Shown here: piece by piece, positions 1,445 through 4,443 of the stretch | Layout of the letters: each line of letters opens with the position of its first letter | How positions within the stretch are numbered: position 1 is the stretch's first letter | Source: a virus | Taxonomy: Duplodnaviria; Heunggongvirae; Uroviricota; Caudoviricetes | Virus record (IMG/VR): IMGVR_UViG_2713896778_000022 | Length of the DNA stretch: 4,443 nt | Direction: 5' to 3' (one strand) | The notes under the pieces: generated by a model | Told to the model about the DNA's origin: nothing | Database searches by the model: none | The model's input: only the letters and a program-made list of their open reading frames with translations | Program-made: the position numbers and the translations under genes

Positions 1445-1540
1445 AAAAAGCTTGCTTTTTTACGCAGAAACAGCTTGAATTCCTGTAAGCTTCGCAAAGC
1501 TGTATCGCGAGGCGAAATGCAAGTTTTTTCGCACAAGGAA
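1445..1540 (+). promoter_or_regulatory. candidate late promoter (PR') and Q-utilisation region
   Basis: Position only: a non-coding stretch between the Q stop and an intrinsic terminator, where lambdoid phages place PR'/qut. Hexamers such as TTGCTT (1452..1457) and TTGAAT (1475..1480) are present, but I could not pair any with a convincing -10, so the promoter is not located precisely. Confidence 0.3.
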
Positions 1541-1562
1541 GCCACCGGAAGGTGGTTTTTTT
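1541..1562 (+). terminator. Rho-independent terminator (candidate tR')
   Basis: GCCACC-GGAA-GGTGG hairpin (5-6 bp GC-rich stem, GGAA loop) immediately followed by seven T (1556..1562). Confidence 0.6.
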
Positions 1563-1685
1563 GTGTCCGTAATATACAGCAGCGCAATAAATTCGCTGGT
1601 GGTTATTAATACCGTTCTTTCAGCTTGCTGGCTTTTTCGACAAGAGTTATTGGTGTGTCACGTTAACCGAAAAAGGGAAAAAGAC

Positions 1686-2000
1686 ATGCTGAAACAGCAG
1701 GATATGACAGAAACCGCCAGAGTGGTGTTTAATGAATTAAGCGTCACCGAACCGGCGACAGTCGGGGAGATTGCGCAGAATACTTACCTTTCANNNNNNN
1801 NNNNNNNNNNNNNNNNNNNNNNNNNNNNNNNNNNNNNNNNNNNATTTGTGGTAAATGGGCGGCTGGTGGGTGTTAGGGGCACTCACCAGCCATCTGCTCA
1901 TGCGTTGGGGTCACAAGCAAACCTCAGGCCCATCTGCTTTGCGCAAAAGCGGTATGAGCCTATCAGAGAAGTGCTTATTGATCTATGGCTAATACTGTAA
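1686..2000 (+). CDS. small hypothetical protein, interrupted by an N-gap at 1794..1843; 3' end overlaps the methyltransferase start
   Basis: ATG at 1686 is preceded by AAAGGGAAA about 7 nt upstream. The first 36 codons read MLKQQDMTETARVVFNELSVTEPATVGEIAQNTYLS. After the gap only one frame stays open, ending at TAA 1998..2000, which overlaps the ATG at 1985. The ORF-track extension back to 1563 has no ribosome-binding site and overlaps the terminator, so I take 1686 as the start. Whether the part after the gap belongs to the same protein cannot be shown. Confidence 0.4.
   Translation: MLKQQDMTETARVVFNELSVTEPATVGEIAQNTYLSXXXXXXXXXXXXXXXXXFVVNGRLVGVRGTHQPSAHALGSQANLRPICFAQKRYEPIREVLIDLWLIL
1794..1843. 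other. run of 50 N (assembly gap or masked sequence) inside the small ORF
   Basis: Unbroken N characters. Confidence 0.95.
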
Positions 2001-3061
2001 AAATATCCAGTTGTGAGTTAATCAACGCCGACTGCCTGGAATTTATCCGGTCATTACCCGAAAATTCTGTTGACCTGATAGTCACGGACCCGCCGTACTT
2101 TAAAGTGAAGCCTGAGGGCTGGGATAACCAGTGGAAGGGCGACGATGATTACCTGAAGTGGCTGGACCAGTGTCTGGCGCAGTTCTGGCGGGTGCTGAAA
2201 CCTGCCGGAAGTCTTTACCTGTTCTGTGGTCATCGCCTGGCATCTGATATCGAAATCATGATGCGTGAACGCTTCAATGTGCTGAACCATATTATCTGGG
2301 CGAAGCCGTCCGGACGCTGGAACGGGTGCAACAAGGAAAGCCTGCGGGCGTATTTTCCGGCCACAGAACGCATTCTGTTCGCGGAACATTATCAGGGGCC
2401 GTATCGTCCGAAAGATGATGGCGATGAGGCGAAGGGCAGGGCACTGAAACAGCATGTGATGGCCCCGCTGATTTCTTACTTTCGTGATGCGCGTGCTGCT
2501 CTTGGGATAACGGCAAAACAGATTGCAGATGCCACAGGAAAGAAAAACATGGTGTCGCACTGGTTCAGTGCCAGTCAGTGGCAGCTACCGAACGAAAGCG
2601 ATTATCTGAAATTACAGTCGCTGTTTGCCCGGGTGGCAGAAGAGAAACATCAGCGGGGAGAACTGGAAAAGTCCCATTACCAACTGGTCAGCACATACAG
2701 TGAGCTGAACCGGCAGTATATGGAACTGCTGAGTGAATATAAAAATTTGCGGCGGTATTTCGGTGTGACGGTGCAGGTGCCGTACACCGATGTGTGGACG
2801 CATAAACCGGTGCAGTACTATCCAGGGAAACATCCGTGCGAAAAACCGGCAGAAATGCTGCGGCAGATAATCTGCGCGAGCAGTCGTCCGGGTGACCTGG
2901 TGGCGGATTTTTTCATGGGTTCTGGCTCAACCATAAAAGCAGCTATGGCGCTCGGGCGTCGTGCAACTGGTGTTGAACTGGAGGCAGAACGTTTTGCGCA
3001 GACCGTTAAGGAGATTAGTCACATCCTTACATGCTCAATTGATGACGGGAAGGATGGATAA
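1985..3061 (+). CDS. beta-class DNA methyltransferase (N6-adenine/N4-cytosine family; DPPY favours N6-adenine), orphan
   Basis: Intact 358-aa ORF. Catalytic motif IV, VTDPPYF, is at aa 33..39 (nt 2087..2098 encode DPPY). The AdoMet-binding motif I, FFMGSGST, is at aa 309..316 (from nt 2909). The order motif IV, then a long variable region, then motif I is the beta-class arrangement. Stop TAA at 3059..3061. No restriction endonuclease candidate is present in the window. Confidence 0.85.
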   Translation: MANTVKISSCELINADCLEFIRSLPENSVDLIVTDPPYFKVKPEGWDNQWKGDDDYLKWLDQCLAQFWRVLKPAGSLYLFCGHRLASDIEIMMRERFNVLNHIIWAKPSGRWNGCNKESLRAYFPATERILFAEHYQGPYRPKDDGDEAKGRALKQHVMAPLISYFRDARAALGITAKQIADATGKKNMVSHWFSASQWQLPNESDYLKLQSLFARVAEEKHQRGELEKSHYQLVSTYSELNRQYMELLSEYKNLRRYFGVTVQVPYTDVWTHKPVQYYPGKHPCEKPAEMLRQIICASSRPGDLVADFFMGSGSTIKAAMALGRRATGVELEAERFAQTVKEISHILTCSIDDGKDG

Positions 3062-3172
3062 AGATATGGTCAGTTCAGGCTGTGAAGCAAGTAGACAGAT
3101 AAGGCTGCAATAAAAACTGACAATAGTAAAATAGCTTTTTCCCAGGTAGTCATGAATACGATCTCTTAAAGC

Positions 3173-3192
3173 GCCCGCTGATACCAGCGGGC
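3173..3192. other. perfect GC-rich hairpin (8-bp stem, 4-nt loop) without a clean U-tract
   Basis: GCCCGCTG-ATAC-CAGCGGGC. On the + strand it is followed by AATACATA; on the - strand by GCTTTAAGAG. It lies about 110 nt downstream of the methyltransferase stop. It could be a weak terminator for either strand or an RNA stability or processing element. Confidence 0.3.
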
Positions 3193-4282
3193 AATACATA
3201 CTGGCATTAATGTTAAGTTCAGGGATAATTCATCGTATTTTGTGGTACGACGCTATCAATATTAATAAACAGTATTTTTCATGTAAAATTTCTGTTTTTT
3301 TTGATCTGATTCTCGTTTCCTGGGTTATGATGTTGTTGTGAACCATGCTGTTGAATGATAATGTTCGGGTATAAAATTGTTGCTGATATGTAGCGCAGTG
3401 AGCGGGTGGTATTTCTGTTGCTGAGTGTACGGATACAGTGCTTCCCTCCCTCAGCGGGGGGGCAGGTGTGCTGTGGTTTTAGAGACACCGGAAACGAGAA
3501 TGATGCGGGTTTGCTGGTGCCGGGATAGAGTCGCCGGAGGTCATGACATAGAGCAAAAAAGGAATGTGCATGCAAATACACACCTCTTCGGAGAGCTCTT
3601 CTTTATATGGATGAGCCTCAAGGTCAATAGTTTATCTGTTATGTATTCATATGTTGTTACTTATATAATCCATACGGGCATATCATCAGTACACACATAC
3701 TATTATGGCATTTTATTTTTGTTTTAACTGAATTCCCGGGGCACTCTTTTTGATTTCTGATAAGGAACCAGAATTTTCTGTTAAATGGTGTCACGTTGTA
3801 AATGGTTAATGGAAGCAGCTTATTATCCATAATCACACCTGAGTTAACAGGTGTGAGAATACTTCCGGGTGGCAGGAACACATCTGACTGATACCAGATT
3901 ATCAACTTTATTTTACACCATACAGTTGAAAACGTTATTCCGCTTGATGGGCATATCACTGTGTCAATAACTATCCATTCCATCTTTTAACCTTCTCGGT
4001 ACACATTGCTTTCGATTGTTTTGCTAAAAATCATAGTCAATAAATCAGTGTAACTCATTGATAAAGATCGTTTTCTTTGTCTTCCTGGGGGTTTCTTTTC
4101 TAATTTTGTATCACTTTGGTTCAAGTTGTTTCATTTTTTGTAATACAAATTAGCAGGATGAGCGGGAATATAAAAAAATCGGATGTTTTTGTAATGGATA
4201 TTATTTTTTGTAAAATAATGTATTTTTATTTAAATCTCTATCAGAAAAGAATTTATTGTTCCTTTATATGGTGGAAAAGGTC

Positions 4283-4443
4283 ATGGTATTTAAACACTAC
4301 GATGTGGTCAGGGCGGCATCGCCGTCAGACCTTGCTGATGCACTTGCGCAAAAAATTCGTGAAGGATGGCAACCATACGGTGGGCCGTTTTCTTCGTATA
4401 CGGATGATGGCGCAGCACTTATTCAGGCGATTGTCGCAGAAGG
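4283..4443 (+). CDS. small phage late-region protein (DUF1737-like), N-terminal 53 codons; 3' end lies outside the window
   Basis: ATG at 4283 is preceded by GGAAAAGG. The translation MVFKHYDVVRAASPSDLADALAQKIREGWQPYGGPFSSYTDDGAALIQAIVAE has the ..GW.PYG..dg..QA.V pattern I associate with the small DUF1737-type proteins found beside lambdoid lysis cassettes. The family name is from memory and not verified. Confidence 0.55.
   Translation, partial: MVFKHYDVVRAASPSDLADALAQKIREGWQPYGGPFSSYTDDGAALIQAIVAE

Follow-up and report, generated by a model that had tools for sequence, protein, structure and literature searches.

The DNA considered here is a 4,443-nt stretch of a Caudoviricetes virus (IMG/VR record IMGVR_UViG_2713896778_000022), called the window below. 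It encodes an orphan adenine DNA methyltransferase, and the ~130 nt immediately upstream of this gene form a conserved, covarying leader RNA whose long-range helix runs up to the start codon. The enzyme is of a known kind; the new and testable part of the locus is its control architecture, above all the leader RNA. Taken as a whole, the explanation judged probable is that window 1554-3012 constitutes a mobile late-operon module of lambdoid prophages, encoding a multiply silenced anti-restriction methyltransferase that would depend on the late antiterminator Q and be gated in translation by the leader. The window matches a lambdoid prophage of Escherichia coli O121:H19 with 100% identity, and NZ_CP027454.1 2503938-2523843 (locus L001) served as the complete reference sequence. 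The central elements are:

1686-1843, + strand: small winged-helix gene, 65 aa (WP_000917767.1; complete sequence at L001 9242-9439)
1855-1984, + strand: conserved structured leader RNA, ~130 nt (covariance-model match 1843-1999)
1985-3061, + strand: orphan beta-class N6-adenine DNA methyltransferase of the M.EcoGII/M.EcoGI family (WP_000024329.1; PF01555)

Structure and conservation of the leader RNA

The leader folds into several helices. P1 pairs AUGGGC with GCUCAU and is accompanied by P1a, a 12-bp hairpin. A long-range helix, P2, joins GGGUCA..AAGC to GCUU..UGAUCU and encloses the hairpin P3/P4; its 3′ strand reaches the nucleotide just before the methyltransferase AUG (-1), and positions -1 to -6 and -9 to -12 are paired within it. 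The same architecture was obtained with RNAalifold, from a hand-built model and from single-sequence minimum free energy (MFE) folds. In L001 the leader has an MFE of -63.4 kcal/mol (z -4.45).

Covariation shows that this fold is real. In a MAFFT alignment of 35 sequences that was not fitted to a structure, 82.7% of cells are paired, compared with 28-50% for slid partners, and in 13 pairs both sides have changed; in Proteus, for instance, GGCUGGUGGGUG/CACUCACCAGCC is replaced by GACUGUAAAAGUG/CACCUUUACAGUC. A covariance model of the leader, R1, was searched against both strands of 100 loci (510 kb) and gave a single match in each, whose end lay in every case ~14 nt inside the methyltransferase gene; the window leader matches R1 at 153.5 bits (E 1.4e-38). 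Among 96 distinct sequences, compensatory changes occur in 33 of the 42 pairs, with a covariation score of 0.324 against 0.05-0.09; this alignment was fitted to R1 and so leans towards the fold, and the unfitted MAFFT result points the same way. All ten pairs of P2 (helices 3 and 4, which abut the AUG) show compensatory changes. No Shine-Dalgarno (SD) sequence lies within 12 nt of the methyltransferase AUG, and in the alignments the nearest purine-rich run (GAG; AAGG in some lineages) stands 14-19 nt upstream.

A known RNA family was ruled out, Rfam 15 being negative at permissive thresholds: 3.6 kb searched at E<=1 gave no match, a 200-nt slice gave hairpin-level hits only (best 18 bits, gathering score 36), and the interval between Q and S of phage lambda gave no match. 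A literature search found no description of the leader RNA.

The methyltransferase

The 358-aa ORF at 1985-3061 is intact and matches PF01555 (N6_N4_Mtase) over residues 29-340 at 147.9 bits, against a gathering cut-off of 26.7 (E 5.6e-43). The catalytic DPPY is D35-P-P-Y38, in the N-terminal part, and FFMGSGST occupies 309-316 in the C-terminal part (F309..G314). The order of DPPY, an insert at the position of the target recognition domain (~120-265) and FxGxG is that of the beta class, and both motifs are invariant in 11 homologues down to 61% identity. The PDB search found no close structure for the enzyme; the nearest entries, 8urk and 9c3u (best E 1e-25), RsrI and CcrM, are distant.

Over its full length, the protein is identical to M.EcoGII at 322 of 350 positions (92%; M.EcoGII sequence machine-read from the PDF of Table S1 of the SUPREM paper, PMC11551740). 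M.EcoGII is a non-specific adenine methyltransferase, prophage-encoded and unexpressed in its native lysogen, whose constitutive expression yields slow-growing, unstable cells (PMC5778455). It belongs to 'a very large family' that includes a protein of phage 1720a-02 (PMC5778455). This phage homologue shares 91% identity with the window protein, and its gene is likewise preceded by the small ORF and the leader. In O111 Shiga toxin-producing E. coli, homologues at 92-93% were listed as 'nonspecific' after REBASE, and no extra methylation was seen in lysogens that carry them (PMC6602927). A review in EcoSal pairs M.EcoGII with Mu Mom as 'silent in lysogens and toxic' (PMC12707154). From the 92% identity to M.EcoGII, the window enzyme is expected to methylate any adenine. 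The enzyme family and its likely target are thus already known, and the window allele is presumed to be active in the same way.

No restriction endonuclease is annotated within 9 kb on either side in the complete genome, including the sequence outside the window, and across the 34 related loci described below there is no conserved downstream partner gene; holin, endolysin and spanin genes are found instead. With no adjacent cognate endonuclease, the enzyme is not part of a Type II restriction-modification system. The preliminary description of this DNA had proposed an orphan beta-class methyltransferase; the Pfam match with its intact catalytic motifs, the motif order and the missing restriction partner, which it had noted for the window alone, bear this out. 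Its view that the target could not be read from the sequence gives way to the close relationship with M.EcoGII.

Genes that follow the leader in other phages

Scans seeded with divergent methyltransferases extended the set of loci and found the leader upstream of methyltransferase homologues down to ~60% identity. A protein-free pattern scan with 15 specified bases gave many chance matches, and 49 of its 80 loci were true by the model. In 45 of these 49 leaders, found without any protein, the methyltransferase ATG stands at the exact position expected from the model; the rest precede one internally deleted methyltransferase, one C5-cytosine methyltransferase and, directly, two holins. On a viral contig (L288 2134-2443), the leader is followed by a decayed methyltransferase that retains residues ~283-348 only.

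The C5-cytosine methyltransferase behind the leader belongs to PF00145 (1.5e-41), and its AUG lies inside P2 (AUGACC pairing with GGUCAU). Such an enzyme takes the place of the N6-adenine enzyme at L270 (3299-4464), L391, L393, L412 and L416. At these loci the first codons of the N6-adenine gene (..AAUACUGUA) are still visible upstream of the new ATG, which suggests gene replacement behind a retained leader.

In bacteriophage Mu, the com-mom operon provides translational control of a toxic late DNA-modification gene, in which RNA structure occludes the start. Mu Com, a zinc-ribbon translational activator, is encoded just upstream of the modification gene. At Vibrio-type loci (L161 1058-1183, L162, L165, L173 and L181), an ORF of 38-41 aa lies between the leader and the methyltransferase, for instance MTKLIELRCHKCGAKLCEFIGTVSIKCKRCKTLIKESAKSA, and its AUG is inside P2; L335 carries such an ORF as well. 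These ORFs match phrog_13819 ('gpCom control of modification', 1.4e-5) and phrog_6417 ('translational regulator', 1e-5), and PF10122 (Zn_ribbon_Com) is their top Pfam hit, below the gathering score. A second hairpin, AGUGCC..GGAGGCACU, lies over the methyltransferase SD, 3′ of the Com-like ORF. The Com-like ORFs tie the module to Mu com-mom-type translational control through evidence that goes beyond analogy.

A second pattern scan, several of whose matches fell in unrelated coding sequence, revealed variant leaders directly upstream of several holin families, including a lambda-S-like holin (L408, MKMPEKHDLL...). Holin-type leaders are found at L281, L290, L392, L399, L408, L410, L411, L413, L417, L423 and in lambda itself (L424), with weaker matches of 20-49 bits. 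In lambda (NC_001416 45014-45111; L424 1215-1312), the match of 32.1 bits (E 4e-6) lies between the terminator tR′ and S, and this copy is reduced, without P3/P4 and with its P1a hairpin followed by GUUUUG. Across 12 holin-type sequences, 94.4% of positions are paired, compared with 30-44% when the partners are slid; P2 is invariant in this type and yields no evidence from covariation.

The starts of S107 and S105 in lambda S are controlled by the structure-directed initiation hairpin, or sdi. In holin-type leaders the 3′ strand of P2, GGAUUUGUUC, can pair with either an upstream GAACAAA or a downstream GAACAAAUCC. The downstream partner, which is GAGCAAAUCC in lambda and AUCUGA..AUCCC in L392, overlaps the CCCC arm of a CCCC..GGGG hairpin over the holin SD, and its sequence varies between lineages while its complementarity is kept. 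This pattern is at most suggestive of a relay from the leader onto holin translation.

Such arrangements allow the tentative proposal that the leader represents an undescribed class of phage cis-regulatory RNA, a sensor that would gate the first cistron of lambdoid late operons. That cistron would be the promiscuous methyltransferase here, a Com-like regulator or C5 methyltransferase in some relatives and a holin in others; in holin-type phages, lambda S among them, the RNA would act by relay onto the sdi hairpin.

A related but rather unlikely alternative is that the leader serves chiefly as a riboswitch-like or protein-binding sensor for the whole late operon rather than as a silencer specific to the methyltransferase. 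P1/P1a, P3/P4 and the junctions would then form a binding domain closed by P2 as the switching helix, and P2 would be wired to the start codon of the methyltransferase, Com-like or C5 gene, or through the alternative hairpin to the sdi hairpin of the holin. The range of genes behind R1 matches, from several holin families to the C5 enzyme and lambda S, speaks for it, as do the fold kept in the holin type and the downstream pairing that reaches the CCCC arm. Invariance beyond what pairing needs is seen, moreover, in the nucleotides of the junctions and in the segments AUGGGC and GCCCA(Y). Against it, covariation is silent for the invariant P2 of the holin type, the holin-type matches are weak and the lambda copy lacks P3/P4. 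Judged as a riboswitch, the leader offers a covarying domain and varied downstream arrangements, but its alternative conformer is energetically weak: AUGGGC:GCCCAY has a median energy 3.6 kcal/mol higher than the MFE and exposes the start region to a modest extent only. A two-state switch through this pairing was accordingly kept as a weak lead only.

The small winged-helix gene

The gene upstream of the leader encodes the 65-aa protein MLKQQDMTETARVVFNELSVTEPATVGEIAQNTYLSRERCQLILTQLVMAGLADYQFGCYRRLPQ. In the window, its first 36 codons are visible (1686-1793), and the other 29 codons, the TGA and a following hairpin are hidden under a run of N. In L001, the TGA lies in the loop of this hairpin (GCCUUC-CGCAGU-GAAGGC, then UUUUUUAUUU), and 151 nt separate the stop from the methyltransferase ATG. 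The protein matches phrog_331 (function unknown), gives weak hits to TrmB, MarR and DprA_WH, and is represented by 334 clusters across Enterobacteriaceae. A PDB sequence search returned no structure for it; AlphaFold2 predicts three helices and a beta wing (pLDDT 93.2). This minimal 64-aa winged helix resembles both DNA-binding (MarR/ArsR/BlaI) and RNA- or Z-nucleic-acid-binding domains (SelB, Z-alpha). It lacks a match to HTH_3 and is predicted to fold as a winged helix, so that nothing marks it as the controller (C) protein of a restriction-modification system, C-boxes not having been searched for.

A genome scan with the small protein gave 34 loci from Escherichia to Plesiomonas (Escherichia, Salmonella, Klebsiella, Kluyvera, Citrobacter, Enterobacter, Buttiauxella, Proteus, Providencia, Mangrovibacter, Mixta and Plesiomonas). 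A methyltransferase homologue of 58-98% identity lies 3′ of the small ORF on the same strand in 32 of the 34; one exception falls at a contig end and the other has a partial ORF. The spacer measures 134-153 nt in every locus with an intact small ORF (L030, with a broken ORF, excluded), despite three Q types upstream. In the larger set, the winged-helix gene is present at 226 of 263 loci.

That the winged-helix protein opens the leader in trans, as a counterpart of Mu Com with a different fold, or else regulates a conserved DNA block at 1624-1661, is an unlikely explanation. Its gene was never found without the methyltransferase, apart from the two truncated or partial cases, and in phages of the Vibrio, Photobacterium and Serratia types the equivalent place is taken by divergent homologues of 75-100 aa (hhalign probability 93.7%, E 2e-7); the likeness to both DNA- and RNA-binding domains would suit either role. 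However, at ~16 untruncated loci the leader and methyltransferase occur in the absence of the winged-helix gene, and the protein therefore cannot be a universal opener. Vibrio-type loci carry both the winged helix and the Com-like gene, so the former is no simple replacement for Com. The modelled protein also shows no dimerisation domain, and its predicted fold alone would not separate DNA from RNA binding.

As an obligatory partner of the leader RNA, the winged-helix protein was rejected on account of the relatives that lack it. The preliminary description had left room for a specificity factor, and the same relatives, with methyltransferase and leader but no winged-helix gene, speak against an obligatory subunit. 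The small partner does stand as a gene of its own, and not as an extension of the methyltransferase. Rather than a subunit, the protein is an accessory of frequent occurrence that probably binds nucleic acid and has a regulatory role.

Other readings of the spacer

It is improbable that the leader is an element of mRNA processing or stability, or a terminator or antiterminator, with no translational role. It does stand at the start of a very long late transcript, P1a is followed by GUUUUG in lambda, and in the window phage a hairpin with a U-tract directly precedes the leader. In the methyltransferase type, however, P1a is followed by AUCUGCUC, which has no U-run, and the strongest covariation lies in the helix that abuts or contains the start codon, which a pure stabiliser would not need.

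The preliminary description had placed in this stretch a small ORF whose stop (TAA 1998-2000) overlapped the methyltransferase ATG at 1985, and had taken the two genes to be translationally coupled. This overlap is an artefact of reading through a run of N. Both 50-N runs of the window alter its length, as seen from its offsets to L001 (+7513, +7556 and +7606): the first (742-791) replaces 93 nt inside rusA and the second (1794-1843) replaces 100 nt spanning the end of the small ORF, with loss of length and frame. Any ORF read across either run is unreliable, the reading frame being shifted. The open frame 1563-2000 appears in the N-containing window only, since it is read through 1794-1843, and beyond the gap the stretch down to TAA 1998-2000 is in another reading frame. 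In the complete genomes, nine E. coli O121:H19-type chromosomes that match window 1445-3300 at 99.9-100%, the gap is filled, the overlap vanishes and the small gene ends at its TGA 151 nt before the ATG.

Frames that do overlap the methyltransferase ATG (window 1855-1992; L001 9415-9606) are not conserved as ORFs. From the conserved spacer ATG they run for 4-45 codons to scattered stops (35 loci), which ruled out a coding upstream ORF coupled to the methyltransferase; together with the compensatory base-pair changes by which the spacer evolves, they show that it is non-coding. The structured RNA fills exactly the stretch that had been taken as coding. A single small ORF spanning the gap and coupled to the methyltransferase as a specificity subunit or partner is hardly credible: the apparent open frame 1563-2000 of the N-containing window is all that speaks for it, and the stop, the frame and the identical complete genomes already refute it.

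The late-operon module and its surroundings

Three further elements upstream place the cassette in the late operon:

914-1444, + strand: Q-type late antiterminator gene of the DUF1133 family (PF06576, 1e-110), which defines the late operon
1531-1566, + strand: tR′-like intrinsic terminator, a 16-bp hairpin and U7, the 5′ border of the mobile module
1624-1661, + strand: conserved 38-nt block, CTTGCTG-N13-(C/A)AGAGTTAT..TGTGTCAC, ~25-60 nt upstream of the small ORF

The upstream genes follow in the order DUF968, RusA and the Q-type antiterminator, and then comes the terminator hairpin. The Q-type gene also matches PF06530 weakly and phrog_753 ('anti-termination protein Q-like'), and in related loci other Q families (PF06530-like quuQ, PF06323, PF03589) stand upstream of the same module. 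The tR′-like hairpin has an MFE of -23.9 kcal/mol (z -6.23), equalled by none of 200 shuffles, and every related locus has a strong hairpin and U-tract at this position, with a differing sequence. The hairpin is flanked by a run of A (5′) and a run of U (3′), which would allow termination in either direction; the promoter/terminator scan lists it on the minus strand only.

Homology to a Shiga toxin 2a (Stx2a) phage covers window 1554-3012 at 92.4%. The module therefore begins in the U-tract of tR′; its other end falls within the final 17 codons of the methyltransferase gene, 49 nt short of the stop. It comprises, in order, the terminator, the conserved 38-nt block, the 65-aa winged-helix gene, a terminator-like hairpin, the leader RNA and the methyltransferase.

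The 38-nt block is kept from Escherichia to Plesiomonas despite differing flanks; searched as a regular expression in 266 loci, it matches the + strand of 187 and the - strand of two. It may act as an operator or as a promoter that is weak or needs an activator. The scan for the sigma-70 consensus did not call it as a promoter, and a canonical sigma-70 promoter at the block or between Q and tR′ was sought in this way and not found. Own promoter and terminator are the mark of a lambdoid moron, to which the block and the hairpin with U6 after the small ORF could correspond, with the block failing the sigma-70 consensus. The octamer CAGAGTTA recurs in the leader junction of many loci outside E. 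coli.

Downstream in L001, iraM (minus strand, window 3657-3983) and a nanS-like pseudogene (from 4283) separate the methyltransferase from the lysis cassette. In the 34 species-level loci, holin genes follow in 13 and endolysin genes in 15, with spanins also present, and the holin starts at a median of 142 nt past the methyltransferase stop (13 holin loci, non-Stx). In Stx2a phages, three tRNAs and stx2AB come after the small ORF and methyltransferase, with iraM and yjhS beyond them. The methyltransferase is thus supported as an orphan and the first gene of the late operon. The position assigned earlier, between Q/tR′ and the lysis genes at the site where stx-type cargo sits, agrees with these neighbours and with the Stx2 phages, in which the same cassette stands directly upstream of the tRNAs and stx2AB.

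At the position of the three tRNAs and stx2AB, window 3012-3656 holds ~600 nt of AT-rich sequence in which no tRNA, Rfam hit or convincing ORF was found; the window as a whole contains no tRNA or tmRNA. The product of iraM (3657-3983, minus strand) is an anti-adaptor that stabilises RpoS. At 4283-4443 (+ strand) a nanS-p-like sialate esterase gene begins, which is annotated in the complete genome as a pseudogene and carries an internal stop. Like iraM it is a typical moron of Stx phages, here in a prophage that lacks stx at this site.

Proposed control of the methyltransferase

The explanation preferred here is the silenced, Q-dependent methyltransferase gated by its leader. In the lysogen, transcription from the late promoter would stop at tR′, with a possible second stop in the window phage at the hairpin that follows the small gene. 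Whatever RNA still extended further would fold with the start region occluded, keeping the harmful enzyme silent. After induction, Q-modified polymerase would read through the terminators, and the leader would then open or be opened by a factor, for which the winged-helix protein, the methyltransferase itself or a metabolite are candidates. The methyltransferase would be made just before the lysis genes and would methylate progeny DNA, which would be protected from adenine-sensitive restriction in the next host. Expression only upon antitermination and an anti-restriction use, as earlier proposed for this cassette, are plausible; the authors of the M.EcoGII study likewise favoured an anti-restriction use of the phage methyltransferase (PMC5778455).

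Several points weigh against this explanation. The sigma-70 consensus scan found no late promoter (PR′) between Q and tR′. With -8.9 kcal/mol (z -1.8), the hairpin that follows the small gene is weak, and Proteus and Providencia lack it. Non-specific activity is extrapolated from M.EcoGII, in a comparison with a machine-read sequence from which 28 residues and the C-terminus differ. The winged-helix gene is missing at the ~16 loci mentioned above, and the leader is not specific to the methyltransferase, given that variants of it also directly precede holins and occur in lambda; the entire late operon may be what it mainly serves. Occlusion is only presumed to repress translation, and a leader with such structure might act on the stability or processing of the mRNA instead. 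As for the hairpin, it was counted by inspection in ~26 of the 34 loci, with a good U-tract in some lineages only, and its role as a universal second terminator was only partly upheld.

Comparison with known systems

The nearest enzymes, M.EcoGII and M.EcoGI of the prophages of E. coli O104:H4 C227-11, are likewise prophage-borne orphans with the beta-class motif order (PMC5778455). The window protein is 9 aa longer than M.EcoGII (358 versus 349 aa), and its C-terminal 17 codons differ, with the breakpoint at 3012. In the text of the M.EcoGII paper the words 'antitermin', 'upstream' and 'ribosome' do not occur, and Q, an upstream ORF or a leader are not described (PMC5778455).

A close parallel in control is Mu com-mom. 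In both, a harmful, late DNA-modifying enzyme that is silent in lysogens follows a small upstream gene, and RNA structure lies over the start of the modification gene, in the window as a predicted structure. Among the relatives, those of the Vibrio type alone add a Com-like zinc ribbon between leader and methyltransferase. The systems differ in several ways, however. The window enzyme is an S-adenosylmethionine-dependent methyltransferase and not Mom. Its upstream protein is a winged helix without a PF10122 hit and is encoded 151 nt away, whereas the Mu genes overlap; the window RNA is a multi-helix domain of ~130 nt, whereas that of Mu is a single stem-loop. A Dam/OxyR or C-protein layer is not evident in the window module.

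Holin-type leaders, including that of lambda, end directly upstream of the CCCC..GGGG hairpin over the SD, which relates them to sdi control of lambda S; the window leader, in contrast, precedes a methyltransferase and has no sdi hairpin. The literature search did not find the upstream domain at lambda 45014-45111 described as part of sdi control.

Other non-coding RNAs are known from the Q-to-lysis interval of lambdoid prophages, such as StxS and lambda 6S, which are short PR′-tR′ transcripts (PMC7547250), and the Pas small RNAs (sRNAs). StxS and 6S end at tR′, whereas the window leader lies after tR′ and is linked in cis to a start codon. PasD1, from prophages of enteropathogenic E. coli, is reported to adjoin a PF03589 Q gene and the holin operon, and PasA and PasC to adjoin the holin (bioRxiv 10.64898/2026.05.13.724894). 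The neighbourhood of PasD1 is that of the holin-type leader, and one Pas sRNA might correspond to it. The Pas sRNAs are reported to be restricted to Escherichia and Shigella (bioRxiv 10.64898/2026.05.13.724894), whereas the leader RNA reaches Proteus, Plesiomonas and Vibrio-type phages.

Implications

M.EcoGII is a standard reagent for chromatin and RNA footprinting, and how phages silence so harmful an enzyme has not been worked out. The locus described here offers a layered and testable form of control, made up of terminators, a covarying leader that buries the start site and a conserved winged-helix companion. Of 5426 complete E. coli genomes, 2495 (~46%) match at least part of a 1856-nt query spanning the cassette. 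In Stx2 phages, the cassette is immediately upstream of stx2, and the leader and terminators are consequently part of the Shiga-toxin transcript. If the link to holins and lambda is true, an unrecognised structured RNA lies upstream of S in the best-studied phage, with a bearing on lysis timing. Should the leader prove to be an undescribed class of sensor, a single signal read by RNA would govern both DNA modification and the timing of lysis.

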